From a virus: DNA of 64,000 bases. The notes beneath the pieces are model-generated. The model was not told where the DNA came from and did not search any database. It was given only the letters and a program-made list of their open reading frames with translations. The DNA lies in IMG/VR virus record IMGVR_UViG_3300045125_000039, positions 4,475-68,474 of that record. One strand, written 5' to 3'. Shown piece after piece: positions 39,290-64,000 of this stretch; position 1 is the first letter of the stretch; the number at the start of each line of letters is the position of its first letter. The position numbers and the translations under genes are program-made.

Positions 39290-39297
39290 TATTTATA
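39290..39297 (-). promoter_or_regulatory. T4-type late promoter TATAAATA upstream of the prohead core gene
   Basis: + strand tatttata 39290-39297. Confidence 0.65.
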
Positions 39298-39309
39298 TAG
39301 TTAATTATT

Positions 39310-42300
39310 TTAACCCACTTCACTTGGTGCTCTTGCACAGCAACAATAACCAGGACAACCAGATCTACAATCATCAAATGGTGCATTTCCACAATTACAT
39401 ATAATAACATTGAGTCCTTGACTACATGGGTTTCCTGCACATACACAATTTGTTGTGCTATAACCGGGAGTTCCTTTTGGACAATATTCACCAGAACATT
39501 CGGGTTCCTCGCCACCCCCACCACATCTGTCTTCATTGTAACAGAAAGCACAACTAGTAGATAAAGGACATCCAGTAGCACACGGAGTTACGCCGCAATC
39601 TACTCCACACCCTGAACCATTTGGACAAACAGCACAATTATTTGCATCTGGACAACCGCTATTGCAAGGGTTTGTTGCACATGCACCACCACAGTTTGGA
39701 CTATCCGGACATACCGAACAATTATCTGCATCTGGACAACCAGATGTACATGGACTTATTAAACACTGATCTTCTGTTTCATTACAATTTGGACCATTTG
39801 GACAGACTGTGCAGTTATTTTCATCAGGACATCCGGCTGTACAAGGTGATGATAAACACAAATCAATAGAAATTTCAATTTCAGGTAATTCTATGCAACC
39901 ATTTTCATCACAGTCACAATGTATTCTATTTTGCATATTGTATAACAAATTATCAGACAAAAGAGTATAGTCTGGTGTCTCTGGAAATAAAGTAACACTC
40001 ACTGGTGAATCATATATCTTCTCAAGTACTGGACTCGTTTGGAGGTCTTCCAGTGTTTTTTATAGACTCTTCTATCGCTGAGAATAATGCATTTTTATAA
40101 TTTGTTTCTAGATGAAATGGTGCTTGTTTTTTGGTACACAACATTTGTGTTGATCTGATAATCTATTTCCTTCTGGATTTAAATTCATAGCATAAGAATT
40201 ACAATTTCTAAGATAATATCTAATACCAGAAGATATTCCTCTATCATTATTTCCTACATTTTCTACACATTGATTTGCATATATTACTTTATTTTGTTTT
40301 GTCGAAGACGCTGTTTGAATACAATCTCTTCTCCAATAATCATTCGAAACCAATTTGATTATATGACTTGATGTTTTTGGTGTCTTATAATCTTGACCAC
40401 CGGGTGATGGTATTACAGTAGTGCCAACTACACTATTGTTATAATCTCTAAATTGATTACAACCACAATCTTGACCTGTAGGACAATCTGAACCAACTCT
40501 ATTATCAAAAGGATATCCTGATGTATCCGATCCCGGTGATTGACAATATTTTACATCACCAGTGAATCCAGTTACATTTAAATCTACTTCTTTTCTAAAG
40601 ACAGTAGCACATGGTAATCCCACACACATGTGTTTTGATACTGCTCAAAACCCAGGAGAACCACCAGGTTTTTTCTCAAGATTAATATTTTGCACCACAG
40701 ATGGAGCACCACATTCACCACAAGAACTTGTTGCGGTTGTACACCACTCATCTTGTATGTTTGATGTTCTTGGTAGTGGTTGATTATGGCATACTTTATG
40801 GGCACGAAGTGCACCCTCCTGGTCTTTGTCTTGGGCAATTATTAAGACATGATTGTAAATTAAAATAATAAGTTCCAGAAGTTGGTTCAACTGTTGTGCA
40901 TTGACAGCATTGACAATTTGGCACAGAACCACATGTAGTTGGTTGGCATATTTTGACATGTATAATATTGACACTTGTAAAAACTTGCTCCAAGTTTATC
41001 AATACAAGTTTGGAAAACTAAACTATCCAAATTCAATCCAAGTGAAGTTGCTCTTTCTAATGTCCAGAAACAATCATAATTACTAAAATCTGTAGGAACA
41101 CCATTTATTACAACTGTTCCTAATGCTTTAATTGCATCACATGTCATAAGTTCACATGGAGAAGTTGGTACACCAGATGAATCTACCTCTTGTAGGATCA
41201 CAATCTGTGCTGTTATATAAATCTCTTACTTTCATCGTTCTCAGAGCACAAAGATTTGTAGAATCTGATATGTTTATTACTTGTCCTGTCTTTGGATTTG
41301 TTCTACAAACTGTTGAAACATCTGGTTGCATACTACCACACCCACACCAATTTTCGCTAGCACAATTACAACCACTTGAATTAAAAGTAGTAAATGCTTC
41401 TGATGTGTTTGTTCTAATATAACTGTATGATGTATTTGATACTGGTTGAGATTTGTGATTACCGGGACACAAATCCCAGGTTATTATATCTCTGATATCT
41501 GGTGTTGACCAATTTCCTGTTTTTGGAAATGGATTTTCTTCATCTATTCTTGGTATGTTAAAACTTTCACATGGATTTGTACAGCAATTTTTAGAGTTCA
41601 CATTCTTCAACAGGAGGTTGTAACTCTCATCTATTTCTGAAGTAACAGTATAGTTTTGACAATCTTGAACTACTAGATTTTAAACTAGTTATACCAGTAT
41701 TCATGCATGAAATATCCTGGCAATCTGTTACCAGATTCATCATATCTTGGTGCTCTGTTACAATCATCAGTTCCACCAGCACCTACAACCTCATCTACTG
41801 AACATGGAAAAAGAATTTACAACATTGTGAATTGCAAAATCCTGAAAGTTGACTACCTGATTTTATACAATTTTCATAGGTGTCAACATTAAATAATCCA
41901 GAAGCAGACAACTCTTCTATTCTTCTCCTACAAGAATCACATGGGAATGGATTTAATTCGCCATTTCCACTAGATGCTATACAACTTGTATCTGGACAAC
42001 ATTTATACCATTTACAACCACCTTCATTTGCGGTTTTACCACAACCAGATGCTCTAGCAGAAAATACTCCGCTTTTACCATTATAATTTAGCGTTAAATT
42101 AATTGTATTCATCCTCCACCATTTCCACAACTACCAGGAGAACCTATGTTGCTATCTATTATTGCAACTATTATATTTGTTATCACTTCCACTCAATATT
42201 GGTGCTATTTCTGCTGCACTCAAAACAGTAGACCCTGATGGACTACCAACTCCACACCCACCTGCACATGCAGATACTGCTCCTATTGCACCTTTTGGTA

Positions 42301-45300
42301 CATATGTTTCGGTAGTTGAATTATATTGAAACCACTCAAAGCCAAATCTACCACATGAGTCACATCTTCCGGAAAATTTAAAGTTGCATTGGCAGATGAA
42401 TTATAAACAAACGATTGACTTGGTTCATATGAACAACCACCATTTTGTCCACTACTATTTAAAAAACTTACAGGAAACCCTGCTGCATATTCTAATAGAT
42501 CTTTAGTTACACCTTGACCTAAAATCATCAAAGAAATATTACCAACAAACCCACAGCAAGTATTTGGTCTATACCCATTACAAGCAGATCTTGGTTTATA
42601 ACCATTGCGCTTTTAAATTATCAAATATATACATGGGCCAGGATTTGAAAAACCAGATAACCCATTAGAGGCAGTTACTATACTGTAATCTTTATAAACT
42701 CCTGGCATAATTTACCCCCTCTAGGTATAAATGGTGCACACCCCTCAGCATTGCATGTTGGATCTGCCAAGCATTCCGATCTAGTCCAAGATCTTGGTTG
42801 TCCATCTGGTGTAGTTTTGTCAATATTCCTTCTGCTCTATATTTATCACAAGGGTTTGCACAGCAACAATTTTCACCACATTCATTTTTTGGATATAAGT
42901 CATAATTGTTTTTTCTTGTTATACAGTTCCAATAATCAGTCAAAGACTTATTAACATATACTGGTGGATATACATCAATACCACTTCCAGGATTTTGTGC
43001 TTCTGCTGCATTTCTTAAAGCCCTAAGTGTTGGATGTCCAGATGAACCATATTCATCCTTGAGATCACATGACGCATCACAGTTAAATTTGCAGCAACCA
43101 GATCTTGAACAAATATCAATTTGTGAACATGTAAGATTATATCTTTTGGACAACCGCTACAGTTTATACTACAACAATTTCTATCTTTACATTTTCTAGA
43201 TGCAAACACTCCTGATTGTTTAAACATTGCTCATATTCTGATATATTATCAGCAACACAAAATCTGCACACTCTTGACAACATCCCTTTCTATCATAAGA
43301 ACCACCATCTGCAGCAACACATTCAACATAATCAAGTGGCGCACCTACGCAAGGATTTACACAACAACTACTTAGATCTGGATTGCCTGCACATTCTGGT
43401 GATTGTAGACATGCATCATATTCCATCTTTGTATTGCTTGGACATGAATAACACTTACTCCTCTTGCACTCAGGATCATCACATTCACAATCTATTCTGT
43501 TCTCTAAAATATATGATAAATTTTTACTATAATAGTTCAAGTTTGGTCTATAATTTGATTGTATATCTGAACCATCGTGTAGAGCATCTGCTCTAAACAT
43601 TGTGTTTGTTTCGCCATAAGGAGTAAATTCTTTAATAAATGGTCGCTTATCTTTGGCAAACAGCATCTACTCACATTTGAAATTTCTGCGTTCGGACTTA
43701 TGTTCATAGAATATGAAGCACACTTTTCTATAAAATACATACCCAAAGCATTTCCGCTGCTTCTAAAGATGTATCGTTTAAATAAGGATCTCCAACATCT
43801 TCAAAACAATTCGATGTGTATATAACTGAATTTTGTGAAGCATCTAAACTATCTGCTATGTTTGGAGACATTCTAATTGTACAATCTCTTTCATAATAGT
43901 CATTAGAAACTATTTTCATTATATGACTACCCTGAAAGGAGATCTCCAGAGTTGATCGGCTTCACTTCCGTCAACTGGTCTTTTCTGTCTATAGTTTTGT
44001 CCATCTGGATACAAGACCAATCAACATTTCTTGTTTGACTACAACCAACAGATTCCTCTAGATATTCTGGAACACTAATTGAAAAATTACAGCCACATAA
44101 AACATAGTCGCCACCACCATATTGTGACCAAGGTAATCCCGTTGTTTTAAACCCACCCTGTGTATTCCAATTAGAGTTTGTTATGTTTGGCTCGGTGATC
44201 TTTTCTACTATTGCTGTATCTACCAAGTGATGGAATTTATTTCCAACAAAAACAACCATGATTGTATTATCATCAAAAAATGGTTCTAGTGGAAGAGTGA
44301 CAGTTGCATTTGCAGTTTGACCAGTATTGCCCTTATTTGCACCATTTCTAAACCAACCAGAGTACAACAAATATTTCATAAAACACTTGTTGGATGTGCA
44401 TCTCCATCTATTGTTTTTTCTGATAAAATATTAAATGTATCTCTTTCTCTTCCGTCTATAACAACTCTTCCGTATGTTCTACAACTGTAGAAAAGATCCC
44501 ATTTAAAAAATGCAATAGAAACAGTCAATGCTTCAGAATGCATACAACCAAAATTTATATTTACTGTTGAACCCGGTGCTGCAACTAAGACATTATCAAA
44601 TTCATTTTCATTTACACCAAAGAACCTAAGTTCTTCTCTATTCATTCTTGGATGTCTTATTATAGGATGAACTTTTAAATCACCAGGATGATTTGGATTG
44701 CTTATTCTATTTACTCTTTTTATTACAGGAGTAATTTCTTGAAATTTTATTCTATATCTTTAATTATTGAATGGATTAAGCTGATTCCTCTTGTTCTTTT
44801 TCTTCTAGGTTGATCTGGATTAGTAGATAAGTGGTTGTCATTGTTTCAGAAACATTATTTCTCTTCCAACCAGCAGGATTATCTTTAAAACAACCATAAA
44901 AAACATGACAGAAAAAATCAAACCACTGACTACACCCTGCTTGTCCACCCTCCCATAATGCTGAACCGTTGGCAGTGACATTTCTTGAATAGTCAAAGTA
45001 ACCACATGCATAAGGATAATTGCTTCTTGGCACTCCAGGATCATCATCTTCTCAAAACTGTTTTACCAAGTGTTCTTCCCTGTGGATTATCTCCACCCTG
45101 AACAGTTCCAAAATAACCACTATCAATAGAGTTACCAACACACATGTGTCTTGATATATTAAAAAATCCAGGCTTACCGCCAACTGCTTTTTCCAAATTT
45201 ATATTACTAATTGTAGTTGGAGCACCACATGGTTGATATTGACATTGAATATCACTAGCAGGAACAGTTCCTTGAGGTGAAATTAATGGTAATGGTGGTG

Positions 45301-45322
45301 GTATATTGTCTTGTGCACTCAT
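39310..45322 (-). CDS. Giant cysteine-rich protein X (about 2000 aa if one gene), multiply frameshifted
   Basis: Plausible start MSAQDNIPPPLP at 45322. Successive Cys-rich ORF fragments join across frames to the clean stop after GYCCCARAPSEVG at 39310. The last 230-aa fragment has about 39 Cys by my count. Confidence 0.6.
39525..39860 (-). repeat. Four tandem 6-Cys repeats (about 28 aa): C..PC.xGCP...NC.VCP....C
   Basis: PCTAGCPDENNCTVCPNGPNC / PCTSGCPDADNCSVCPDSPNC / PCNSGCPDANNCAVCPNGSGC / PCATGCPLSTSCAFC. Confidence 0.9.
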
Positions 45323-48300
45323 GGACTCGATCCAGATTTAGTATCGTATTTTTTAAATCTACCATTTCTCTTATCGGATTGATAAGGGTTTCCACAGACC
45401 AATATTTAGAGTGTTTCTGTTTTGTATTAAATCCAGTTTAGTTGTCATATTGACATAGTTGCTACAGCACCAGCCAACCAGTATTTGTGTTTCTAAATGT
45501 TGGATCATAATCATTTTCTTTACAAAATTCAGTATAATCATTTAATGGAATAAATGAAGAGCAATCGATTTTAGATGCTTTTGTTTTTGTATTCTTCCAT
45601 CCACATGTTCCTTTGTTATTGTCTCCATCAACTTCCCATATCCACAAATCGATTAAATTACCATCTTTGTTTTTTAAATTTCTAACATATTTGTTCGTCG
45701 CATATGTTATAGCACTACCAGTATTCACCATCTCTGTTCAGTGTATGACCATGAAAATTAAAACCACCAACTACTCCTGTGTACATTTCTTGTTTCAAAT
45801 GCATCGTTGCCATCTTTATCTTTTACTTTTAATTGTGTTTTCCATTCAACATACCAGAACAAGTAGTTTTCAGTTATTTGTTTGTTTGCTGCTTGTATTG
45901 CTTCTTCTTTAGTAGAAAACGCGACCAAACCATCCATAGTCGCTCCAAGGTAAACTTTTTGATTATACTTATCTGGATCTATTGCCATTCTTTGAAATAA
46001 ATCTATATCAGATGTTATTTGTTCACCGAGGATAATCTTTCCATCTACTATAAAGACAACACCAAGAATTTATATGTGCTTGATATGGTAACACAGAAGA
46101 ACATTTTTGACCAACTCCTAACTGTATAGACAGCAGGAGTTCCTCTTCCACCTTTTCTATCAAACTCTATGCAGGAACAATAGTTCTCGGTTATTACTGT
46201 TGACATTAGTTTGGGTCCTACTATATTTGGTACTACAGGTCCTGTAATATAGGAGTCACATCACCAGTTGATGCTTTCATTGAACATAGAATTGTTTTTG
46301 TTAATAGCACGCCTGGTTTATAGCCCCATTCACCCCATTCTTCCGTGCCTTTATCTCTACAATTAATATGATAAGCATCATGTAATCTTCCCAATTTAAA
46401 TAATGTTTCATTAAACTCTTGAATTTGATTACTCTTCATCAACACACCAGAGTTCAAGAATGAGATTGGTCTATTCCAGAAATATAGTGGATCAAAGTTA
46501 TCGACATAGAAATTCTGGAAGTAACCACTGTTCAATCCATTATTCAATAGGAAAGAAGTTACATATTGATATTTGTATGCTCTCTGCTGGACCCGGTTCA
46601 TTTGAATTTTCTGCTTGTAGTCTTGAATTCTTATATGAGTCCCAATTTAATCCAACATTAAATGTTCTAAGCGGAGTTCCGTTTATGTACTTATTTGGAC
46701 CAACAAGAGGATACAACTTATCTGTTTCTGGACTAATTGTTATAGTTTTTGTTCCATCAATTTGTAATTCATAAACACTTGGGAACGCTTCAGTTCCTGG
46801 ACTTAGAGTGTTACAACCAGTAACTCCTGTATATGTTTCAGAATTCCAATATTTAATAGGAACAGCAGCAATCATTACTTCGTCCATACATGGTAGAGGT
46901 GAGCAAGAGCATCTAGATGAACCAATAAAAGATCCTGCACCAGCAGAGGTATTATCACATGGATAATATGATGTAGATGCTCTTCTACTATAATACAAAT
47001 ATGTTCTAGGAACACCTGCAGTATAGTTAGGATCTGTTGCTGCATATACAGATGGTAATCCCTTATATGCCAATTCTGCTGATGTAAATTCATTTTCAGG
47101 TGCTAACTTGACGCCAGTAACTACACTTAATGTTGAATGTGTTAATATTGAATTTGTAGAATCTGCTTCTGTTCTTAACTTCTCATAGCAAGAAATACAG
47201 AAAGGAACAACTGCTCTATCATTTTCTTTATTGTTTCCACAACAATTCCATAAATTATTTGCATTAAACAAATGTTCATACCATAATTTAGATGTTCCTG
47301 TTGATCCAGATGCTGCCAGTTCCAATAAGAACCCATAGGAACTAAAGATCTAAAACCAAGATCTGTAAACTTCTTGGACTTATCAAAGAACCACCATATT
47401 CTCTATATTGTGATTCATTAGAATCCCAACAGAAAGGACTCTTATCTCTTGCATATGGGAAGTATGGATTTTCTTCTGGAACAGGATTTTTTGATGGTAC
47501 ACAATCTGGGTCTGCAGCACTAGTTCTAATTTATTATCGACTATTGCTTCAACTTTTCTTATTTGAGGAAGATTTGCCTTCCATAAAGAAACATTATTCG
47601 CCTCAAGAGGTTGTTTGTGATTTGGAACCCAAGGTTCTGTTATAGACCAGTAGGTATTATTTTTATAAATTGGTGTCACCAGTTATATAAATGTCACCAC
47701 AACGAACACATCTACAATCTATGTTATATTTTAAATGTATAGAGGAACCAAGAACATCTATTCCAGACTTATTATAAAATGGACTCAATCTAGCAGATTC
47801 ATTTCTGCCAACATTTTTTAGTTCATAGATTGCATTTGTTTTCTTTTCCAAACACTCCATGCAGTCATCAAAGTAGAATCCTTCTGCCAATCCAAGATCT
47901 GAATATGTTGCTTGTTTGTATCCTTTTGCAAATGTAGCATCTGTTCCCACCACCAAGTAAGAATCTTCCAACATTGGAATCCAGTATTGATTTTGGGAAA
48001 TAACAGTTATCACCGTCCGTGAATATTTTACCAACAACATCACCAACAACTGTGAACTTTAATTTTCTAAATTCATCAACAGGTATATCTTTCAATTCAA
48101 ATGCAGAGTAATCTGGTGCTTCTTTATCTGCAAATTTTAACATCTTATCAATACTTCTTAATGGTTTGTATGAATTTACATCACACGATGAACATCTATC
48201 ATCTGTTGATCTTTTCTTACCACCAGACAAACAATTTGTATCTCTAAGGTAATCTGCATCACCAAAGTCTAAAGAGGTTCTACTTGGTCTGCAATATTCG

Positions 48301-49207
48301 AATGCAGTTTGATCAGCAATTTCCCCAGAACCAGTTCCAGTTATATAACCATTGAATGGTAAAGTTGGATTTAATGGAATTATAAGTTCCTTTGTTAATT
48401 TAACTCCTGCTGCTATTATTTGTGCAGGATCATATATTTGATAATATCTGACAGTTTGTGGATATGCTGCTTCGAGTCCCTTGAATCCCCAAACAGATCC
48501 AAAACGAGACTTCACCATATGCGTCTAGTGGATTTTCACCTTCTTCTCTTTGAAGATCGCTCTACTTGCCCAACAACCAACTACTTCACCAGAATTACAA
48601 CTAACCGCACACTGATAAAGTCTATTTGCACCATGGCACGGTCCATAACCAAGCCCAAAATCCAGACATTGCATAGAATTTATTAAAAACTTACTTCACC
48701 GTTTGCACTGGGAAATTTCTCCAACCAGTTGTGCTACTAGGAGTCCATGATTGACCATTGTATAATTTGTATTCAATATAAGCATCGGAGTAATAATAAT
48801 CGGTAGTGTTTGTTTCAATTCTGTTATCCACTATAGGCATGCCGCCGCCGTAATCTGGTGATCTATCTTCATCTAATACGCCAGATATTGAATAATCTAC
48901 TCTTGCCAATAAAATATCTGCAAGACATGATACTTTTTTATCACTGAATGGAGGGAATAGTGGTTTTTCACATTCGCCACAACTAGGAACATAATTAAAC
49001 CCTTGAGTATAATCAGAACAACCTAGAGAAGTACATCTGTTAAAACTAGCTCGATAACTTGGATCTCTGTGAGATTGACTCTTGACTATATCTTGTTTTG
49101 GTATTGTGGTGGATATAATCAAACCATTACTACCATCTACTCTTGATTTAAAAATAGGAGTAGTAGATTCTATAGTGATATAAAATGTTGATAGGTCTGT
49201 TGCTCAT
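45319..49207 (-). CDS. Large moderately Cys-rich protein Z (about 1300 aa if one gene), frameshifted
   Basis: Start MSNRPINIL at 49207. ORF fragments 48691-49122, 47868-48518, 47663-48049, 47383-47679, 46540-47325, 46233-46601, 45758-45988 and 45462-45731 overlap end to end. No family recognised. Confidence 0.5.
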
Positions 49208-49208
49208 A

Positions 49209-49792
49209 TTATCTTGTGATTGCTGGTGTTACTACGAATCTTCCTTGTAATATTCTAAAAACTACTGTATTGGAATCCAAACCATCAGTTATATTCTGAA
49301 AGTTTGCACATCAGTAGCAACGTGCTGGTAATTTATAAAACACTAGTTCAAGATCATACAGATAATTACCATAGTTTATTCTTCTTGTTATAAAAGATGA
49401 TAATGATATTTTTAAATTTGGTGTTGGTATTTGTTGTATTCCAACTGGTAATCCGTCTGATAGACTCAAATCAATTGCATTTGACCCTAGAGGATTATAA
49501 CTTTCCCCGTATAATGAAACAGGACCAGAGTCTGTTGCGTTCAGGGATTCAATTCTACTATTCCACCGTTTACAGAATTTCTAACTTGCATTTTTGCAAA
49601 TACACCACACTTACCTGCTCTAGTGGATTGTGCTAATTCTGTTTCAAATCCAGATGGTATTGCTGTTATCGAAGGTGCACGAGTATTGCCTTCATTTAAA
49701 TTAACAACTATATTTGTTGCGTCTTTAAATTTTAATTTAAGTTTATAACTAGTGCCTTCTTCAATTTGTATGTCATAATAGGCTGCTGGCAT
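49209..49792 (-). CDS. Adaptor/baseplate-upper-like protein (YDI..EEG type), frameshifted
   Basis: MPAAYYDIQIEEGTSYKLKLKFKD...AKMQVRNS...YDLEL...LQGRFVVTPAITR*. Confidence 0.55.
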
Positions 49793-51413
49793 CGAAAGGT
49801 TTACCTCCTGTTGGATCTGCTTGTGGTGCTACCGTATTTATACCACCTGCAGAGGTCTGACCACCAGTAGGTGCTCCGGGTTGACCCATTTCTTGTCCTT
49901 GTGGAGATAAACCAGCAGCAATTGATGCTTCTTGTTGCTTTTGCATCTGTATCATCTGTTCTTCAGTAATTTCAGCATCAATTTGTACAATATCTTGATC
50001 TGTTTGACGCAATAGATTCTTTCTTAACCATCTATCAGAATAGAATTTACCAGAATAGTCTGCTGCATCTCTTAGAATTGATATTCTATCTCTTAATATT
50101 TCATGCTTGCTTGGATTCTGCAAAGTAGGAGTCTGTAGCAAACTTAAAGTGTTATGTCTTGCTCGATACTCTTCCAATCATCCTCACTCATTACTTGTTT
50201 TGCTAATAATTGAACTCTCAAGAAGTTCAAGAATAATTCACTAAACTTTCAAACGAAGTCTATTAATAAACTTTGAAAATTTTAATTCATCTCTTGTAAT
50301 TTCAGATGCTCTTCCCATATTGAAATCCGTATTTCGGCTTCGATTCTGACTAATAGGAATGTTGAGTGACTTTAACAATTTCTTTTGGAAGTAAAGAACA
50401 TCTTCCATCTCTCCAAGATTTTGACCACCGGGTAAAGTTGAAATTTCTGTTCCTTGACCACCTCTCTACGGGGTAACCAATAATCTTCCAACATGCTCAT
50501 GTGTTTACGATCATCACGAATTTCTCCGGTATTTGCATCGTAAACAAGTTTATTGCGAAATCTATTCATCTGATCACGCATATATTGTTCTGCTTTATTC
50601 TTTGGCAATGAACCAACATCGATATAAAATACGCGACGCTCTGGTGCTCTTGACCTAACGGTAGATTACAGTAGCATCTTCAACCATTCTCAATTGATTG
50701 AGTGGCTTAATTGCTTTGTGTAAATAACCAACTATTCTTTTACTTGCAGTAGTCATATAACCCAGAATGGACATAGTTTATGCTATCTGCTGGATATTCT
50801 TAATCCCTTTGTATCATATGGATTTAATTTTTCATAGTTAGAAAATACATAATATTCCTTTACATCTTTGACTAGTGGAACATTTGCAAGTGTTGTATCT
50901 TTCTTTACTTCTCTTATCTTCTTTATTAGAAGCGGATCTATAAGACGAACTTCCTTCAATCCCATCGTTGGGTCGTCGTGTAATATGTGATGATAATACA
51001 TTCTACCATCAACATACCATTTTCTAAAAATTTCAATACCCTTCTTACTAAAATTTAGTAGAGTATAAAATTATATCAAATTCACCATAGATAATATCTT
51101 TTATTTCATCTGGTATATTTACTTTATCCAAATCTAATTGAAGAACTTTACCAGTTGCATCTTCTGTTATTGCATCATTGCAATATCGTCAATTGCAGCA
51201 TCCACTTCTGAATGCAGAGACATTTCTCTGTATTTTCTTATTAGTTCAACATCACCTTTGAGTGTTCCATCCAAGTCAATATATTGACCTTGAAAGCCCA
51301 CCACCTTCGACAACACTAGCACCGTCATCAATTGCTTTCGGTACAAATGACTCTACTTTGTCTTGTGTGTCGTTCTTTTTTCCAAATGTAAAACCAAATA
51401 ACTCAAATGCCAT
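49773..51413 (-). CDS. gp20: Portal protein, frameshifted
   Basis: MAFELFG, WYVDGR.YYH, RAPERRVFYIDVGSLPKNKAEQY, RNKLVYDANTGEIRDDRKHMSMLEDYWLPRREG. Confidence 0.96.
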
Positions 51414-51429
51414 AATAAAGATCCTTTTC

Positions 51430-52169
51430 TAGAAGAAGAGTAAGGGGTTTGTGATGTCTAATTCCAAACCCATTACCACCTGCTGTTGATATACCGAAGG
51501 AATTGTTTCCACTACCTCCACCAGTACTTATGCCGAATGAATTTCCTCCTGCGGTGGTAACACCGAATGAGAATCCATTTCCTGATTGTGACTGGTTGTT
51601 TACGCTAGGCACCAACACCAGCAACATTGACTGCACTGTTTGTTTGGTATGGTGAGAGGCTCTGTCACGAAATATGAGTACTTAAAGGTTACTTGGAATT
51701 CTGAAACAGTATCATTTTGATCATAACCTAGTTGTACGGATGATACTAATTCTTACTTTATATCAAAGAACTGATACCATTTTACTATTTTGTAACTTCT
51801 GTCTAACTGTGCTACAGTAGCAACACCGAATGCTTGTCTTGGGTTTGGATACTGTGTTGAGTTACCAGCATGGGTATTAAACAATTCATTCCACAATTCA
51901 AATGTATTTCTTAATGTCATATTTTGATCATTGATTACATCAATAGTCCAATCATCATATGTACGATCTCCGGGATAACAGTGCCATACGACCGAGGTAT
52001 GGAACATTTACTTCACCAAGATATGATTGTGGTAACATTGCTGCTTTGCAGAAAAACTGTAATTGTGGAAGTGGACTCAACGGGACAAACCAAATTTACA
52101 GAGTAAAGATTTGGTCTTGAACCGCCGTCGAAAGCGGACATGAATGAATTGATTGAAGAGTCGAGCCAT
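51430..52169 (-). CDS. gp19: Tail tube protein with Gly/Phe-rich C-terminal extension, frameshifted
   Basis: GGSRPNLY, FFCKAATLP, PGDRTYDDWTIDVINDQNM.LRN.FELW, F.VTF.Y; follows gp18. Confidence 0.88.
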
Positions 52170-52214
52170 TTTTATTTTCTCCTTGATACCTCTATTTATG
52201 CCCTTTTTTTATAA

Positions 52215-54060
52215 TTATCCACCGAATTCTGCGAAATGTAACACCAGTTGGTGTTGCAACAAAGTTAAGACGAATGAAGTTGATGCTTCTTGCTGGTGCA
52301 ATGAAGATATCTGCTACGAATTGATTTTGATCAATTACAGATGGTGTGTTGTTTGTTTCATCACATATAATTGCATATGATGTTACACCTCTCTTGCCCT
52401 GTACATCTCTTAAGAATGGTTCTACGAGTTGACGGAACTGAGCTCTTGTAAACGAATCGTTGAATTCGAAGAGTTGGAACTTAGCAGCAGTTGCAATGGT
52501 CTTTTCTAGAACATTGAAGAGTCTGCGTACATTGATTCTATCGAAAGCACTTGGTTTAGTTTGTAGTGTCTTATCACCAAAGAGAATTGCTCCTGATCCT
52601 TGGAAAGAAACTACTGGATTGATATTTACAGAATACAATTTATCTCTATATTCCTTTGATGGGTTCCATACCAACTTTACTATGTTATTGATACGACCAC
52701 GATCTATAACCTGCTGAGTGAATACCAAGGTTCTTTTGTATTGTCTGTTCTTACACAGCAACCTGCAATATCACCACATAGTGGAACATAGATGAATCTA
52801 TCATTGAATCTGTCGTATTGATATTTTGCATTTCCATCCATAACACCATATGAGGATGAGACCGATTACACCTCTATAGGTATTTAAAACATCGAAAACA
52901 TCATCATCTGTTGTTGTTGTACCAATTTCATTTACAATTTCTAGTGGTTTTGCAGATACGAAAGCGATGCAGTCTTGTCTAGCAGCAGCAATTTCTATTA
53001 CTTTCTTTGCATTTGTTGCATTCATGTGACCTGCGATTAGGAGAGAAACATCTACTTCTTCTGTGTTGCTAAACTCTCTTTCAAATGTATCAGCCTTTAG
53101 TGTAAATATACCTGCTTCATCATTTGAAGTAATTGGTAGTGTTTGTCCTCTACCATTCATTGTATATTGCTTTGTATAAAGAATTTCATAAGGAATTACT
53201 TCACCTGTTGAAGAATTAAATCCAATTTCGCTTCCCCATGATCTTTGTGTTTCCTGCTTGTGTTGTGTAGGTTCCTGCATTGTCTGTATCGTTACCTGTT
53301 CCTGGGTGTTCTCCACACCAAACATACAGCAGACTTGTTGTTATATAACATTTCTATAATAAATTGAAACACCATCTGCAGATTTTGCATCTGATGCTTT
53401 GGAAAGGTTTGGAATACCTCCAACACTGTTCCTTTTTGTCCTGAGAATGTACCGAGTTCATCGATAACTACTATGTGAATTTCGTCATCAACATTTGATG
53501 AGCCTGTTAAATTTTGCATAGTCTGATGTACCCAGGAGTTCCTAATTTATTAATCCATGTATCATGATATGCAGTTGAAATCGCATCTGTTTGATCTGGA
53601 TCTGCCTGATCCACTACAATGACTGTTAGGCTTGTTTCTAGTGATCCTGGGTACTTAGCAGCAAATCTCCAATTGCAATCTGTATCAATATGTTCCAGCG
53701 ATTGATTGTCTCTCGTAATCTTCTTGATTTGCAATTGTAAAGTCTGTACCAGAACCACAGTCTGTTGCATTATAAGAGTTGGTTTGGTTTTGCTCTTACA
53801 ACTGTTAGAGCACCGCCGTAGGAAAGATAGTTAGCAGCAACGAACCAATCTATTGAATAGAAGACATCTGTTACGCTTCTAAATGGTTTGCCAAAACATT
53901 TTGTAACTTTTTCTTCTGAGTCGATTAGTACTTTTGGTCTACTGGGACCCCATTGAAATACGCCAACATAACCTGCTGAGTGTGGTTGCAATTTGTTGGA
54001 ATCACACTGGTTAAGTCAAATTCTTTAATTTCTACTGCCGGGACTTAATTGGAATGCCAT
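52215..54060 (-). CDS. gp18: Tail sheath protein, frameshifted
   Basis: MAFQLSP..EIKEFDLT, GVFQWGP, DEIHIVVIDE.G.FSG..GTVLE, LFGDKTLQTKPSAFDRINVRRLF, DIFIAPARSINFIRLNFVAT. Confidence 0.96.
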
Positions 54061-54120
54061 TTTCTCTCCTTATTCGCCCTATTTTGGCCTAAGGTTATGT
54101 ATAAAAATCATTATTTCTAT

Positions 54121-55756
<1,636 letters not shown>

Positions 55757-55767
<11 letters not shown>

Positions 55768-56215
55768 CTGTTTCTAATTGTTTAATTTCTTGCATCTTAC
55801 CCTTCAATAACTTCTGTAATTCTGTAGTACTACCAACAAATATGGATTGATTGGTAATATTTTGGTGCAGATTGAGTAGAAGCAGGAGATTCTTGTTTTT
55901 ATTTCCTTTTAATTGTTTATGTAATTGTAGAAGATCCTTATTTGCATCCGCTACACTTTTAATCAACTGTGATACGACTTCATATGCTCTTGGAGAATCA
56001 CCTTCAGAAGCAACATGAAGAATACCGTTAATTGCTTTATTTCCCTTTTCTATAATACTATACAAATTTAGTCTTACGGCTTCAAAATCAGTAGTAGCAA
56101 CATCCTGTTTTTCAACTGGTGTTAGTACTAATGGCTCTTGTTCTATTATTTCATTGGAAGTTTCTACATTAAAAACTTCGCTCAATTTTTCATCAATAGA
56201 TTTTTTATCTTCCAT
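55757..56215 (-). CDS. gp16: Terminase small subunit
   Basis: DFEAVRLNLYSIIEKG..AINGILHVA.E.DSPRAYEV..QLIK...TNQSIFVGSTTELQKLLK. Confidence 0.9.
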
Positions 56216-56227
56216 AATATACCTCTC

Positions 56228-56379
56228 AATTATCTATAATTACGAATTTGTATCGTCACTATAGATTATATCTTGAAACAAATTTAATTGTTTATTTGCT
56301 GTATATTCAATAAAATTTTCTTTTAAATTTTGAATTAATTTTTCTTGTTGTTGTTGTAAAATTGTTTTTCGTCAGCCAT
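56228..56379 (-). CDS. Small hypothetical protein (frameshifted)
   Basis: AAGGA RBS then ATG at 56379 (MADE...), ending near ...FVIIDN* just upstream of gp16. Confidence 0.35.
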
Positions 56380-56391
56380 ATACTATATCCT

Positions 56392-59300
56392 TTAAGTTGC
56401 TTGTTTGCAGCAGCAATAAACTCTACATACATCATTTGATATACATTCTTCATAGTTGTCAGAACATGTTGTGCATGTGGCTCTGGTGGACAACATTCAT
56501 TTTCCACACAGTAAACATCTGTTTGACATTCTTTGTAATAATAGTTATTGCAAAGATCGCATGGGTTATTACAACAATTATTTTGAACACATACTGGATC
56601 TGCTGAACACTCTGCATACCCTTCTTTAGTTCTACTCTTGTTGCATGGTGTACATGGATTTGGTGGGCAACAACCTTTTGTAACACATGTTGCATTTTGT
56701 ATGCATGTAGCATAATCCCCTGGACAATTTTCACATGGTGGGGTTTCTCTGCAACATATATTCTTTACACATTCAAGTTATATTAGAACAATTTTCATTT
56801 CTACAACCAAAACATGGATCGGGTGGTGGTGCATTACAACATCCCTTATCTGCACAACCAGAAGTTGTTATACAAGTTGGATATGCTGATTCTTTATATG
56901 GTGGACAACTTGAACAAGGATTTGTACAACATGGTTGACCTGTTCCCCATGTATCAATACAGAAATTCTTATTTTGTTTATTAATACATGTTATATATTG
57001 ATTTCTAGTATCGTCTTGACAACGACTAGATTTACAACTACAGCAACCAGGAACACCAGCATCTGGTGAGTTGCTACATCTTGGATCTGGGTGTGTGCAT
57101 GAAGCATTAGGATGATCTGGATCATTCTTACAATCTAAGCATGTTGGTGTAGTTGGACAACATCCTGCTGCAACACATGCTGAATTTTTGTTACATTCGA
57201 AGTAATTTGTTGAACAACCTAAACATGGATTTGTACAACATGGATGATCCGGACTCTGTTGTGGTGGGACACAATCTGGGTTTGCTAAACATGCTTCATA
57301 TTCTGCTTTAGTAGAGGATCTGCAATTATTTAAAATACAAGGAGCAAGACCACAACATCCATTCAGATTACATCCAGGATTTAATATGCATGTATAATAA
57401 GAATTGGGATCTGCATCTAAACAACCTTCGCATGGATCTATTGAGCAACAACCATTGGATGCACATGTTAGATTAGAATAACAATCTTGTGGATTTTCAT
57501 AATCACAACCAGCACATGACGGAGGTTCTGCATATACAGCAACCTGCATTCTTACAGAATGAATCTTGCATACATGTTGTAAAGTCTTTGGAGCAGTTTG
57601 TACATGGATATACACAGCACCCTGCTTCATTGCAGCATTGATTTTGTTTACATGCCTTCCAGCCCATTTATTGTGGCTAGAATCTGGACAATTCATATTT
57701 GTACAATTGCAGTGTGAACAACAACCATTTTGAACACATTGTGCGTTTGCTTTGCATTCTGCACATGTATTTGGACAACCGGAACAAGGTTCTGTTTCTC
57801 TTCTAATACAACATTTGTTAGTTGCACAATAGGAACTTTCAATACACAATTGATATTCTTGTTCAGTATCACATACACCACCATTGTCTCTGCAATGGTT
57901 GCAAAGATCACATGGTCCGGGTGGTGGAGCATCACAGCAACCTTTAGCAGCATATGGTGATCTTTAAACACTGATTATAATCTTTTGGTTTTCCTATGCA
58001 TGGATTTGTACAGCAACCAGCAGTTACACATGAAGGAGTTGTTCTACAAATATCATATCTTAATTTTGTATCAGTTAAACACTGTGATCTATTACATACA
58101 CAACATGATTGATCTTGACATAAAGAATCTGCATTACCGCATGCAGTTGGGCTTACACAATGCACATGTAAACACACCACATGAACATCCTTTCTGTCTG
58201 TATATTGTTTAAATTCATTATTTGTTCCAGATTCTGCGGCCTTACATGCTCTCCATTTTTCTATGGTATCAATAATTGGCATACCTGAGCATGGATCACT
58301 ACAACAACCAGAACTTAAACATGTAGTATTCGTTAAACAATTTTGATATTGTGTTACAGTTGTACTAGCACAAGCAGAGTCATTGCATGGACAACAATCT
58401 GTTTCTGGTGCTGAATTATTTTTACATCTTGTATCGGTACTTGTACACGAAGTAGAACCACAATACGAACACAAGAAAGAACCACAACATGCGTTATCTC
58501 TTAAACCACTGAATATACCAGTGTTTTGCAATACACTGGTCATATAATTGTGGTGTGGTTATTAAAGATAAAACTGGAACACCACTTAACTTACAAGGAT
58601 CATCACAGCACGAAGATTGTGGACAATTTACTACACAATTCTCATATTCTGCCTTTGTGCTAGTTGCACATTCACTCTTTGAACAAATACAACATCCACC
58701 TTCCCATGTTTGACAAATTTGGGGCAGGTACACTGTTCAAAGTTTCTTGAACATTCACAATATGAAGTATCCAATTCACCATCACCATCCCTATCAAATG
58801 GTTGAGTACAATAAGAACAATTAAAATTACAACACTCTAATAGACTCCACTGTATATTATTAGCATTAGTATTAGCGGTATCTACACAATTCCAATAAAT
58901 TGATGGAGCACCTGTACATGGATCTGGATCCACAACAATTAATATTTGGACAAGATGCAATACAATTTAACCATTCAGATTTTGTAAATCCCATTGATGT
59001 ATCTGATGCGCTGACAAACTGGATTATCATCACATGTACAACACGATGGACATTGTGAAAATGTGGTGTTTGCACAAACTGTCACCGGATCCGAACCACA
59101 CCATGAACAATTCCAATTTCCACAACATGCTGTATCAAAGCCTTCCAAATCCAGAGTAAGCACCAGTTCTTGTTATGCACTGATTATATGTCACTCCATC
59201 TGTTGGTGCTGGTATAGATGCACATGGAGTTTACACAACAAGCCTGGAGTTGGACAACCACCTTGTGCTATAGATTTGATGCAATTTTCATATTGTGCTT

Positions 59301-61240
59301 TTGTTGTTGTAGCACATGCTGGAATATTACAGACACAACAACCATTACTGGAACATAGTGGTTCAGAATTGGCACACACTGCTACTGGATTAGCACCACA
59401 CCATGTGCAGTTAAATGATCCACAACAAGCAGGATCATAACCAGCGTATATTCCCTGACCTGCTATGCATTGTTTGTAAGAGGTTATACTTGTTGGTGGT
59501 GTTCTTGTACATGGATTTGTACAGCAGTTACTATCTCTACAAATTTGAGTTGCAGAATTTAGAGCGTTTATACAATTTTCATATTGTGCTTTTGTTGAAG
59601 TTGTACAAACAGAATCATTGCATACACAACAATCTGTTCCAGGACTTGAAGGGTTCTTACATCTTACATCTGTGTTTAAACATATATTTGGTTGAGTACC
59701 ACAGTATTCACACTTGAATGTTCCGCAGCATGTACTGTCAGTTACTGTACTGAATTTACCTGTCTTTGCTAAACAAGCATCATAGTCTGCTACTGTCTTG
59801 ATTTCTGACTGTGCTTCTTTTCCACCAGTTGTTAAACATGGATTTGTACAGCAGCCATTTGTTGTGCATTCTGTATGTGTTAAACAATTCTGATATTCTG
59901 TTATTGTATCTGATGCACATTGTGGGTCAGCACATGCACAGCATCCACCTTGAGGAATACTTGTATCACTAAATCCTTTTCTACAATTTGGATTTGGACT
60001 ATTGCATGGATCTGAACCACAATCTCTTAAACAATCTTTTATACAACACCCAAACTGCATGCATATTGAATCCTCTTCACATAACCAATAATCATAAGTA
60101 TTAACACATAATGGTTCTAAAGTTGCACAACTATCTACACAACATTCCTGACAAGGACATGATATAATGCAATTTTCATATTCTTGTTTAGTATTTGTAA
60201 AACATTCTGTTCTTACTTGGCCGTCTGCCTTAACACATGGACTTTGACCACATGAACATCCAGTTATATCTGGGTCACAGATACCACCAGATGCATAATC
60301 TCCCAATCTATTCTCGCAATTAAAATATTTTGTACAATAATCTGGATCGGTTGGATTTATTAGACAAGTTCCCGGACATGCTATAGCACAAACCAAGACC
60401 CCAATCTTCCCAAAATTTACAATTTGGAGAATTTTGTGTTTCTGAAAAATTTAAATCACTACAATAAACTGGTTCATTATTTGCATCCATGTATGCTATT
60501 GTTGTTTGACAGGAACAACCCAAATCATCACCTATTGAACCCAATCCACATGGTTTATAGTTTCCAAGAGAACCACATAAACTGCCACAAGAATTGGAAA
60601 CACAGAAATAAGAATCCGATCCCGGTTGTAAATTTATTGGTTTATTTATTCTAGAATAACAAAGTCTTTTTAAATCTCTATCTGTTATATCTTCGCAATT
60701 TTCTAAATTATCACAACCATAATCTGCTGCATCATCATAAAGTGCAGAGGAATCTGAAAATATACTATTACATGTAATTGCTTCTATGTAAAGTGTATCA
60801 TAAACTGCACCATATGTCTCACCAGCATCACTATAACCTTCTGCACAACCTGTATCTGCTGGAAAAAGTTTAGAGTGAATACCATCAGCTTAGTGGTTTG
60901 TAGCATCTTACTTCGCTAACTGCATGGCCAATTTGTTTTTTTCTCCGAAGCAGGATAAAAGGTTTGTTGATTTGTACCTATATACCAAAATTGTTTACAT
61001 TTACAACAAGCATTTGGTGAAGTTGCGTGACAGTCTCCCCCTTCCTACACCATTAGCACAACAATTTTCTTTCATTATTATTTAATGAATTTGGTTTGCA
61101 ATAATGTCTTCAACAGGGTTTGTTGTTCCAACAGCATGGTGACTCTCCTACAATTACAGTTACCATCAGAACAAGGTTTTATACATGAGTCAGGTGTACA
61201 ATCTGGACACGGATTTGGTGTGCAAATGAACTATATCTAA
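56392..61240 (-). CDS. Cysteine-rich repeat region of a giant protein (about 1600 aa; start not resolved), multiply frameshifted
   Basis: Fragments 59191-60396 (about 64 Cys in 401 aa by my count), 57944-58543 and 56773-57849 among others join into a continuous Cys-repeat reading that ends ...VCRVYCCCKQAT* at 56392. Confidence 0.75.
57950..59960 (-). repeat. About seven copies of a roughly 100-aa Cys-rich unit
   Basis: Unit CC.C....C...TK..YENC......C....CC.NPC......Y..C......CCG.F.C..CG..P..C; examples CCVCNDSVCTTSTKAQYENC, CCVCNIPACATTTKAQYENC, CCICSKSECATSTKAEYENC, CCPCNDSACASTTVTQYQNC. Confidence 0.85.
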
Positions 61241-64000
61241 CAGAATCTAATTGTTTTATTGTATCTTCTACTATTTCTCTTTTTACATCAGAAATATTTT
61301 GAATTAAATTTGGATTATTTAGATCAAGATTTGGTGCTGCTTGTCCTGTCATAAATGATGACAACATATTGATAGATTTATTATCAAGTTGCTGTTCATT
61401 AGCATTTTGAGTTGGTTGATTATCTATAAAATCGTTTAAATTAATTCTATTAATTTCTGGGTTTGTCATTTTATCCCGCACTTGTTGTATATTCTGGCGG
61501 TGTAGATATATTTCTCTTTATCCAAACTCCCCTCTTGATTGTGATGTGATATCTATGACTATAGTTTGTGGTATATCAGTATCAGTTCCAACTCTTGTTA
61601 ATTTTACTTTACCTGTTTGATAGAATTTTTCTGGTGGTATAGTAATTCTCCAAATGTATATATCAGTACCTTCAAGTTTACCTCATGATTAAATATTTTG
61701 TAAATACATCTGGGAATGTAATTCTATCAACAACTGTGGTTATATCACCTGTTGAATTTGAACAAGGAATTGTTAATCTATTATCACTTAATACTCTCCT
61801 CATCTAAAATTTGCTGCATTTTTAAAGTGCTTCCTGCAAATAGATTTAAATGTCTTGGTGCGTGTAGTAAGTGTGATATATTTGTTCAAACCAATGTGCA
61901 TAATATGAAATTTCATTATTATCATACACCAAACCACCTAATTCTCTTGTTGGCTATGGTTGCAAATGGCTGATTTATAATAATTAATATCTGATCTTAA
62001 AGTGTGCTCATTTCTTTAAGTTCATCTACAATAATTTTATGTGATAACTCTTGCTTCCACTTTGAAATAAAGAGTATCATCTTACTTTCCCAATAATAAC
62101 CTTTGATTGTTAATGGACTTGTGACATTGGCCAAAGGAATACGAAACTACCCAATTATTGCACCACTACCACCCACAATTTCCAAAACTTTAGATGTTGG
62201 ATCTTTTGTTCATCCTGATGGTGCATGTAATTGCATCTTTGGTATTATTGTTCCCGATATCAATTGAGTAACTGCCATATTTTTGCCCGAGTATTGTTGC
62301 TTTAAATTCTGCTGTTCTCATTGGATCTGAAACTGGATATCTCTGAATACCACTTTCTCCTGATTCACCACCATATGGAGATAGAACATGTGGAATCCAC
62401 TCTATATTTTTCTAAATCATTTTTGGAGGTTAGAGCATAACCAGATCTTATTAAAGTATATGTTTCTATACCAATATTCTATTGGCATTTTAATAATATT
62501 TGAACAATTACCATCTGGAGAATAAAATGGAGTATCTGCTGCATAAGTTTGGTTCATCATAATTTGAAACTGGATATGAAGGTCTACCACACCCCATATC
62601 GTAAGTATATAGGCCATATTATATTTTTTAATCCACTTACACTGCATTGTATAAATTAACTCTCTGTCATAGTTCTATCGTTATGTACATTAGGAACATA
62701 TTTCATTGCATCGTTAGAATCTTGCTAGAGTCAATGCTTCTTCTGCTGAAACAGGTTCTACTTCATAATGAATATATCTTACACATTGTTAAATTCTGGG
62801 AATTTATCTAATGCTTCAACGAACTGTTTATTAATATAAACATTGAAATACTGATGTCACCTGCCCACCGCATTCCAAGCAGCAATAACATCTGTTGCCC
62901 AAAAGAATAAGCACTAAGTCCTGCACCGATCGCCCAATCCGGTTGGCCCGAATTTGAGTCTTAATCTTCCTGCTGTTTTTCTTGGTATCAGCGAAACATG
63001 AATCTGGAGAACCTGTTTGACTGTTTCCAGTTGATGGTGCACAACCATAATGTGTCCAATATGTTGAAGGATATTTGCCAACAGGTGGGTGCAGTTTCTC
63101 CGGGTTTTACAGCTGCGTTTATATATGGTTCTAGTAAATAATACCAATCAGATGTAACCTAAATTTCTACCAGTTAGATCATTGAATCTAGAAACAAATT
63201 CTTCTGCAAATGTTTTATTGGTTACTGGGCTTTTAGTGTTGTAAATCTTGAGTCTGCAGTTATTGCTTTAAATATTCTAGAGTCCTGTAGTCTTCTAGTT
63301 CCATCTCTATTTGGGAAATATCTTCCTGCACTTTCTAAATGCCATATGTATTGTGATTCTTTATCATCCAATAAATAATCAAATTTTAATCCTTCATCTT
63401 TACACCTTTGTAAGAATGCAGTTACAGATGATTGACCATCTTCTGCATTTTTATTGAACCAAAGTGTTGGGAATCTTTTTCCATCATATACTGTTCCATC
63501 TGTCGTATTTGCATAATAATCAACTGTAACATCTTCAAATACTTATCTCTCCACCAAGGAAATAAACCAATCTTCTACCTTCTGGTATTGCATTTAACCA
63601 AGATTTAAATGTGCCAATCGAATCCTTTACTCCTGTCAAGGAGTAATGGATCTCTTTGACCATTGCTTCCATTAAATCTTACATTTACTAGAGGAACTAT
63701 TGCTTTTGTATTGCATAATTTGCAGGATTACCATGAAGAAATTCATTACCCCACCAATGCATAATCTGCAACATTTATTGGAGTAGAAAATTTTAATTCT
63801 GCCAGTAACTTCCCTGAACTAGAAGAACCAGAAGTAACAGTTTTATAAACATAAGTTTTGAAGCAGACAATGTTGGATCTATATCATAATATGTTGATAT
63901 ATCATTTTCTATTATTTTGTTGCTATCTTTTTGGAATGAAGAACTAGTTTCTGTTGTTTTTCCTATAAATTTCTAAACTATAATCCAGGAGTACAATAGA
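61240..64000 (-). CDS. Unrecognised coding sequence, heavily frameshifted; probably the non-Cys N-terminal part of the giant protein and/or upstream genes
   Basis: Protein-like fragments (61179-61481, 62417-62647, 62914-63147) on the minus strand run directly into the Cys repeats near 61240; no family recognised. Confidence 0.4.

Follow-up and report, generated by a model that had tools for sequence, protein, structure and literature searches.

The 64,000-nucleotide (nt) stretch of viral DNA analyzed here, referred to throughout as the window, corresponds to positions 4,475 to 68,474 of record IMGVR_UViG_3300045125_000039, a 74,392 bp IMG/VR viral contig with a CheckV completeness of ~33%. 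Directly upstream of the terminase genes there is a locus at which many short open reading frames (ORFs) together make up one gene, encoding a cysteine-rich protein of ~1,704 amino acids (aa). This is a genuine late-module gene of an uncultured freshwater T4-like myovirus, and its product is built from tandem cysteine (Cys) modules belonging to what, as judged by sequence searches, is a previously undescribed family. The locations of the gene, its component parts and its neighbors are listed in Table 1.

A single gene in a fragmented assembly

The genes of the window are mostly on the minus strand and their ORFs are broken up throughout. From ~61230 to 56392 on this strand, stop-to-stop ORFs and Cys scans reveal a series of stop-free segments that alternate between frames, the majority with a Cys content of 13–17%. 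A frameshift-tolerant dynamic programme, in which codons are scored by comparing the amino-acid composition of clean stretches in frame with that of stretches off frame and each frameshift carries a penalty, joins the series into a single continuous protein with 22 frame corrections, starting with an ATG at 61469 (MTNPEINR...) and ending in ...RVYCCCKQAT, with the stop codon at 56392–56394. The protein contains 269 Cys residues, or 16.6% across its 1,622-aa Cys-rich part; T, N, S, P, G and D are abundant among the other residues, giving a hydrophilic composition, and His accounts for only 0.6%. The initial annotation described about 4.8 kb of near-continuous Cys repeats, and this holds insofar as there is one gene with a long Cys-rich part, but not for the segment at 60323–60889, which has only 7% Cys.

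Contigs from four independent public metagenome runs were compared with window positions 55000–62500, and several observations bear on the reality of the gene. First, a single 14,187-base contig of run X1 spans 55588–62500 unbroken, taking in gp16, the Cys gene and its upstream neighbor, with 83 substitutions and 62 gaps relative to the window over 6.9 kb. Second, wherever a single-base indel is listed, the four runs concur against the window, whose assembly has approximately one indel per 110 bases relative to these independent short-read assemblies. The frame breaks are therefore errors of the window assembly, and the locus is not chimeric. Third, the 35 listed differences between X1 and the window inside the gene comprise 20 synonymous and 15 non-synonymous changes in the reconstructed frame, and five of the six changes in Cys codons are synonymous TGT/TGC swaps, which argues that this frame is under purifying selection. 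Fourth, intact homologous ORFs are present in other contigs, namely P0008 (3,687 aa, contig L008), P0009 (1,220 aa, L009) and P0011 (1,586 aa, IMG/VR contig L011). The initial annotation had allowed that the region might be non-phage contamination or untranscribed; the physical linkage of the locus to phage genes disposes of the former, and two metatranscriptomes containing 5–10% of the gene's sampled words provide weak evidence against the latter.

Two further observations concern the window assembly. At the indel rate given above every ORF call across the whole window is unreliable, and long genes look like fragments. At position 57710 all four runs have an A where the window has a C, which changes a Cys codon of the window to Phe; the Cys probably reflects an error in the window or a variant private to it.

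Table 1. Features of the Cys-rich locus and neighboring genes, with coordinates in the window.
Feature	Position	Strand	Basis and remarks
Whole Cys-rich gene	56392–61469	minus	Reconstruction; X1 strain differences; intact homologues P0008, P0009, P0011
Leader, Cys-free, N/Q/T/S-rich, ~82 aa	61226–61469	minus	No signal peptide by eye
Irregular N-terminal Cys-rich region	59938–61225	minus	Homologous to P0008 residues 1681–1948
Seven super-units (U1–U7), ~100 aa and 16 Cys each	57962–59937	minus	Reconstruction, alignment
~17 short modules, 26–42 aa, mostly six Cys	56406–57961	minus	Reconstruction; modules proper at 57933–56406
C-terminal tip, ~125 aa, most conserved part	56395–56774	minus	61–74% identity to P0008 and P0009
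gp16-type small terminase subunit	55760–56215	minus	PHROG 445, E 1.8e-37; 65% identical to gp16 of L008
gp17 (terminase)	54098–55767		Follows gp16
Upstream giant gene(s), 3′ part	61521–64000, on to window-equivalent ~69560 (L002 contig position ~74030)	minus	Collinear with N-terminal 1,320 aa of P0008
gp15	Window-equivalent 69563–69917		Past the window end

Modular organization and Cys conservation

The leader is the N-terminus of the protein where the gene is split off from its upstream neighbor, and an internal linker where the two are fused (P0008 residues ~1433–1540). The irregular region that follows includes the low-Cys segment mentioned above, which is acidic and ~190 aa long, and a strain-variable block at 60054–60322. 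There are then two types of repeat, and both had been recognized correctly in the initial annotation as seven units of ~100 aa and shorter units of the form PC..C....Y..C.....C...GCC. Each of the super-units is composed of sub-modules A, B and C with 6, 4 and 6 Cys, respectively, and all three end in CC; their patterns are vCNxxxCxxxTKxxYxNC..C..CC (A), TNPC..Y.QC..CC (B) and GSFNCxWCG..C..C..CC (C). The short modules conform to PC-x2-C-x5-12-(Y)-x2-C-x4-7-C-x2-6-CC, and their region contains one pair of compensating frame errors at ~57657 and ~57529. The tip terminates in ...CISN(D/E)(V/I)CR(V/L)YCCC, with 7 Cys in the final module.

Several aspects of this arrangement are informative. First, 24 modules of the window protein have exactly six Cys, compared with 3.2 ± 1.8 in 1,000 shuffles (maximum 11), and across the proteins tested the number ranges from 24 to 28 (~3.3 ± 1.8 in shuffles). 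Second, the number of Cys per module is predominantly even, in 39 of the 42 modules of the error-free homologue P0011 (20.9 ± 4.0 in shuffles) and in 40/46 modules of a second error-free homologue (~21 ± 4). These shuffle controls show that the module pattern is not a by-product of composition. Third, CxxC is depleted, with 35–38 occurrences against 45–48 in shuffles. Fourth, Cys is kept in 61 of the 64 Cys columns of three orthologues as compared with 31% identity in the non-Cys columns, in agreement with the fixed Cys spacing and variable loops initially described; 15 Cys columns are invariant over the 13 super-unit copies from three phages in alignment A3, and there are conserved Tyr, Pro and Gly positions within the modules. 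Finally, the four-Cys B module corresponds to a six-Cys module minus its second and fourth Cys, a joint loss that would be expected if Cys 2 and Cys 4 of the six-Cys module pair with each other.

Relatives and predicted structure

When 1.84 billion cluster representatives were searched exhaustively with phmmer, using a single clean sequence as query, only two relatives were obtained, P0008 and P0009. The third intact homologue, P0011, is in the same location in its contig; in contig L012 the C-terminal tip is followed by gp16, and L015 too contains the tip motif. No confirmed relatives emerged from IMG/VR and JGI metagenomes searched with P0002 and with P0008:2600–3100, and a word-indexed protein search returned only the window's own protein with P0002 and nothing with the ~1,700-aa query in which stops were represented as X. 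Megablast of positions 50000–64000 against the INPHARED phages gave no match. Queries P0001–P0003 match no Pfam family at E ≤ 1, and P0008 and P0011 match none at E ≤ 0.01; five window fragments, P0008 and P0011 are without a match in PHROGs, as are P0011 and a super-unit profile in a PDB sequence search. A description of such a phage protein was not found in the literature either, and the initial suggestion that the repeats belong to no established or described phage family stands. P0008 contains a Cys-poor insertion of ~340 aa (residues ~1960–2300) in the middle of its Cys-rich region, which is beta-propeller-like by eye and for which there is neither a counterpart in the window nor a Pfam match.

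The comparisons with eukaryotic proteins made in the initial annotation fare less well. The modules do share with those of the minicollagen/NOWA Cys-rich domain (CRD), EGF, granulin, TNFR-CRD and Giardia variant surface proteins (VSP) an organization of ~30-aa six-Cys tandem modules with fixed spacing and variable loops, and with the minicollagen CRD the CC doublet at module ends. The likeness is one of analogy only, however, as the minicollagen signature CX3CX3CX3CX3CC occurs zero times in the window protein, P0011 and P0008, and the depletion of CxxC together with the lack of a Pfam VSP match argues against a variant surface or cyst-wall (Giardia VSP-like) protein. EGF, laminin-EGF, granulin, TNFR-CRD and other curated Cys-rich domains give no Pfam profile match, and rather than any of the named eukaryotic folds the modules are predicted to be short-helix bundles.

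This prediction comes from an AlphaFold2 (AF2) model of the super-unit, made with the 13-row alignment A3, in which six short helices form a compact domain with a predicted local distance difference test (pLDDT) score of 85.5 and a predicted template modeling (pTM) score of 0.67. The super-unit model has no neighbor in the PDB by Foldseek (best E 5.3), in the AFDB clusters, in the ESM Atlas (TM ≤ 0.39) or in BFVD (best E 3.5), and VIA-align against 48,161 PDB representative chains gives none at Z ≥ 2; a model of the C-terminal tip is likewise without structural neighbors. We propose on the basis of these models that each module may be a pair or bundle of short helices.

Variation among strains

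P0009 and P0011 are 97–99% identical apart from one clean 365-aa indel, equivalent to ~4 super-units, so the number of repeats varies between very close strains. Variation of a second kind is evident at 57759–57891 and 60054–60322, where other strains of the window's phage have unrelated sequence of almost equal length. Runs X6, X13 and X4 either have different sequence of almost the same length in place of the blocks at 57759–57891, 60054–60322 and 58694–58931 or skip them, and the three blocks are localized hypervariable cassettes inside the Cys-rich gene. Such a combination of repeat-number and block variation is typical of host-interaction proteins.

Genomic context and the upstream partner

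The gene is situated within a T4-like (Kyanoviridae-type) structural module, with the order gp13-gp14-gp15 / gp16-gp17-gp18-gp19-gp20 around it. It is directly upstream of gp16 in L008, L009, L011 and L012, the first three of them freshwater T4-like contigs, and its position immediately upstream of the terminase genes in the window is as initially annotated. L008 has the order gp13, gp14, gp15, a 58-aa ORF, P0008, gp16, gp17, gp18, gp19 and gp20, and the longer gp16–gp20 run is observed in L008 and, by ORF sizes, in L011. The window has gp18–gp20 downstream of gp17 and is collinear with L008 from gp15 to genes beyond the portal, from which it follows that an insertion of ~13 kb separates gp15 from gp16, with the Cys gene as its gp16-proximal part. 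In the cultured relatives S-SRM01 and Melnitz gp15 and gp16 are adjacent or parted only by small ORFs (~2.3 kb in Melnitz). The large terminase subunit (TerL) is 55–59% identical to those of Methylophilales, Pelagibacter and cyano-myophages. Near-identical sequence is indexed for 20 runs belonging to 11 studies; most are metagenomes of freshwater, rivers and estuaries, and a few are labelled soil or outdoor. The phage lineage is therefore probably common in the environment.

Two minor features of the region may be noted. The spacer of ~177 nt between the stop of the Cys gene and gp16 contains a possible small ORF of ~45–55 aa (56240–56371), with a probable frameshift. Exact copies of the T4-type late promoter motif TATAAATA are all on the coding (minus) strand (7/7 in the window, e.g. 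49835–49842 and 39290–39297), in a number that is not above chance; a copy in L008 (21060–21067) overlaps the P0008 stop, just upstream of gp16.

The ~8 kb between gp15 and the Cys gene is near-continuous minus-strand coding sequence, and ~950 aa of it are without a counterpart in P0008. It is probably a single giant depolymerase-like gene, which in L008 is joined to the Cys array and in the window is separate. P0008 matches the whole island collinearly, with its first ~1,320 residues corresponding to the upstream gene(s) and those from ~1433 onwards to the leader and Cys array. An ORF of its own encodes the Cys protein in the window, L009 and L011, starting 10–50 nt past the upstream stop; for the window itself this arrangement is provisional given the indel rate. 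The upstream gene of the window matches Beta_helix (PF13229, 26.3 bits with a cutoff of 25.9) and RCC1_2 (41.4 bits), and the upstream partner in L011, P0012, matches Hepar_II_III_C (PF07940, 34.1 bits) and has in addition an RCC1 propeller. These predicted domains are the repertoire of phage polysaccharide depolymerases. A beta-helix or polysaccharide-lyase domain in a structural-module protein, the usual mark of a depolymerase or tailspike, is thus predicted for the upstream or fused partner only. The locus resembles a tailspike or depolymerase system in that the partner (the N-terminal half of the fused P0008) carries Beta_helix, Hepar_II_III_C and RCC1 domains within the structural module, and departs from it in that the Cys array has no counterpart in any described tailspike and no N-terminal virion-adaptor domain is detected.

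A related Cys island, island 1, is present at 39310–49792 of the window. It contains an A-type Cys module (43262–43528) that is matched by P0008 and P0009 with E ~4e-8, and its C-terminal fragment (39313–40059) likewise ends in YCCC, although by BLASTP this fragment is not significantly similar to the gene described here (E 0.17 against P0001). The island 1 genes past the portal (46320–49792) are kept in L008 and L011, with 69% identity for a 196-aa 'adaptor' and 58% for an ORF of at least 1,000 aa.

A putative virion appendage

The family and its predicted fold are new. The kind of protein is a known one, since T4-like genomes do encode, in their plastic regions, accessory structural proteins that are hypervariable and consist of small domains in tandem. 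Our tentative preference is for an accessory appendage of the virion, with the ~1,700-aa protein of ~40 disulfide-stapled modules as its stalk and tip. An exposed appendage is suggested by where the gene lies in the structural block, by its fusion to a lyase-like protein in one relative, and by the variation among strains in repeat number and through block replacement, and what points to a virion protein in particular is the synteny together with the beta-helix fusion in one relative. The protein would be made in the cytoplasm and assembled, or released, at lysis, after which oxidation in oxic water would convert it to a protease- and shear-resistant stalk resembling beads on a string, whose length would be set by the number of super-units. 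The conserved C-terminal tip with its odd Cys (YCCC) could be the docking or disulfide-anchoring end. Physically the Cys protein would belong with the giant polysaccharide-lyase-like protein encoded just upstream (beta-helix and RCC1 here, heparinase-type in L011), and the appendage may act in recognition or penetration of host-surface glycans.

Several observations weigh against an appendage of this kind. First, no virion-attachment domain is recognized, with Pfam and PHROGs empty for P0008 and P0011. Second, typical phage fibers are trimeric beta-structures, unlike a Cys array. Third, the domain ahead of the Cys array differs among the relatives, and it is therefore not evident that the two proteins dock through a conserved interface. 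Fourth, there is no T4-type late promoter (TATAAATA) directly upstream of the Cys gene in the window. Fifth, the AF2 model of the C-terminal tip, with paired short helices in each module, is of moderate confidence (pLDDT 66 overall and ~80 over residues 110–200). Finally, Erv1/ALR was not found in the 74-kb contig, L011 or L012, nor thioredoxin in the 74-kb contig; these contigs are 6–33% complete and the search for a sulfhydryl oxidase, which the initial annotation had recommended, is hence uninformative, but it leaves the correct formation of ~130 disulfides unexplained.

Among the alternatives, the protein could be a decoration of the head or neck, comparable to Hoc or whiskers and serving in adherence to particles or glycans or in environmental protection, and not a receptor-binding appendage on the tail side. 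A string of small monomeric domains is nearer to Hoc-type decorations than to trimeric fibers, the gene adjoins gp15, the tail-sheath stabilizer (with the neck genes gp13 and gp14 just upstream of gp15 in L008), and the second island past the portal gene holds the homologous A-type module noted above. T4 Hoc and the tandem immunoglobulin (Ig)-like and BIG decorations are similarly strings of small domains in accessory, non-essential virion proteins that are encoded in plastic regions and vary among strains. The present protein differs from them in having helical Cys-stapled modules without an Ig-like or Pfam domain and in being 4–10 times longer, with capsid attachment only a candidate. Fusion to a lyase-like protein suits tail spikes better, and none of the observations presented here tells a head or neck location from one on the tail. 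We consider this alternative rather unlikely.

A location outside the virion is also unlikely. The protein would then be released at lysis or be free in the extracellular medium, alone or with its lyase-like partner, and would alter the polysaccharide environment of the host or act as a decoy or adhesive for progeny or debris. The hydrophilic composition and the lack of a detected virion-attachment domain are compatible with this, as is the partner, which starts directly with a beta-helix-type N-terminus. However, the place of the gene inside the gp13–gp20 structural block is held in all relatives whose flanks were read, phage beta-helix and lyase proteins are typically virion-borne, and block replacement with changes in repeat number is typical of exposed receptor-binding or decoration proteins.

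Disulfides or metal sites

Phage proteins are synthesized in the reducing cytoplasm and are generally poor in Cys, and it is pertinent to ask what the Cys residues do. Disulfide stapling, as proposed in the initial annotation, appears to be the best reading of the modules. It is favored over metal sites by the even Cys parity, the conservation of Cys, the joint loss of Cys 2 and Cys 4 in B modules, the depletion of CxxC, the scarcity of His and the conserved Tyr, Pro and Gly positions. There would be three disulfides per six-Cys module, eight per ~100-aa super-unit and ~130 per chain, all within modules. An export signal, another check that the initial annotation called for, was sought by eye in the protein and no signal peptide was seen, which implies that oxidation would occur at or after lysis, or by means of an oxidase absent from these partial contigs.

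That cytoplasmically made phage virion proteins can become disulfide-bonded is indicated by Pam3, a freshwater myophage in which cryo-electron microscopy, mass spectrometry and dithiothreitol (DTT) treatment show fibers that are disulfide-anchored to the baseplate (PMC9942802). Pam3 thus provides a precedent for a disulfide-dependent virion architecture, with Cys-rich patches holding the fibers covalently until DTT frees them (PMC9942802). It differs in that its few disulfides are between subunits in ordinary baseplate and fiber folds, whereas here there are ~130 presumed intramolecular disulfides in tandem modules, with no similarity in sequence or fold.

Alternatively, the Cys residues could bind Zn, Cu, Cd or Fe in the manner of metallothioneins or Zn2Cys6 sites, making this a metal-stabilized structural protein or a metal sink or carrier. 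Synthesis in a reducing cytoplasm without an evident export signal, and with no oxidase found in the contigs searched, is in keeping with metal binding; so are the 16–17% Cys with CC and CxC motifs, which are also seen in metallothioneins, and the capacity of six Cys to form a binuclear site. Metallothionein-like proteins have ~25–33% Cys in CxC, CxxC and CC clusters, few aromatic residues, and no stable secondary structure without metal. The lower Cys content of the protein described here, its CxxC count below that of shuffles, its near absence of His and its conserved aromatic, Pro and Gly positions with confident helical packing all argue against membership of this group. Moreover, the even parity and the joint loss of Cys 2 and Cys 4 fit pairwise bonds, and no Pfam zinc or metallothionein family is matched even at E ≤ 1. 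Metal binding therefore seems distinctly unlikely. Least tenable is an artefact (contamination, chimeric assembly, or non-coding repeat DNA that is Cys-rich in one frame by chance), which we count as refuted: the window ORFs are indeed heavily fragmented, but indel errors account for this, independent contigs join the locus to gp16 and the upstream genes, and the frame is under purifying selection and has intact homologous ORFs.

Implications

If the protein is an appendage with a new fold, it might mature only after lysis, with ~270 free thiols giving rise to ~130 intramodule disulfides in lake water and the odd Cys of YCCC forming an intermolecular bond that anchors or polymerizes the appendage. 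We regard this sequence of events as improbable as things stand; if true, it would represent a redox-triggered hardening analogous to the maturation of cnidarian capsule walls, for which there is no described bacteriophage counterpart.

The locus also illustrates that an indel-ridden assembly can hide giant genes. The module family, being without relatives in sequence or structure, would provide protein engineering with a new small scaffold rich in disulfides. For the phages themselves, a conserved protein of 1,200–3,700 aa with ~17% Cys in even-numbered modules implies extensive oxidative folding, either outside the cell or by a route as yet unknown, and raises the question of how virions mature and remain stable in natural waters.

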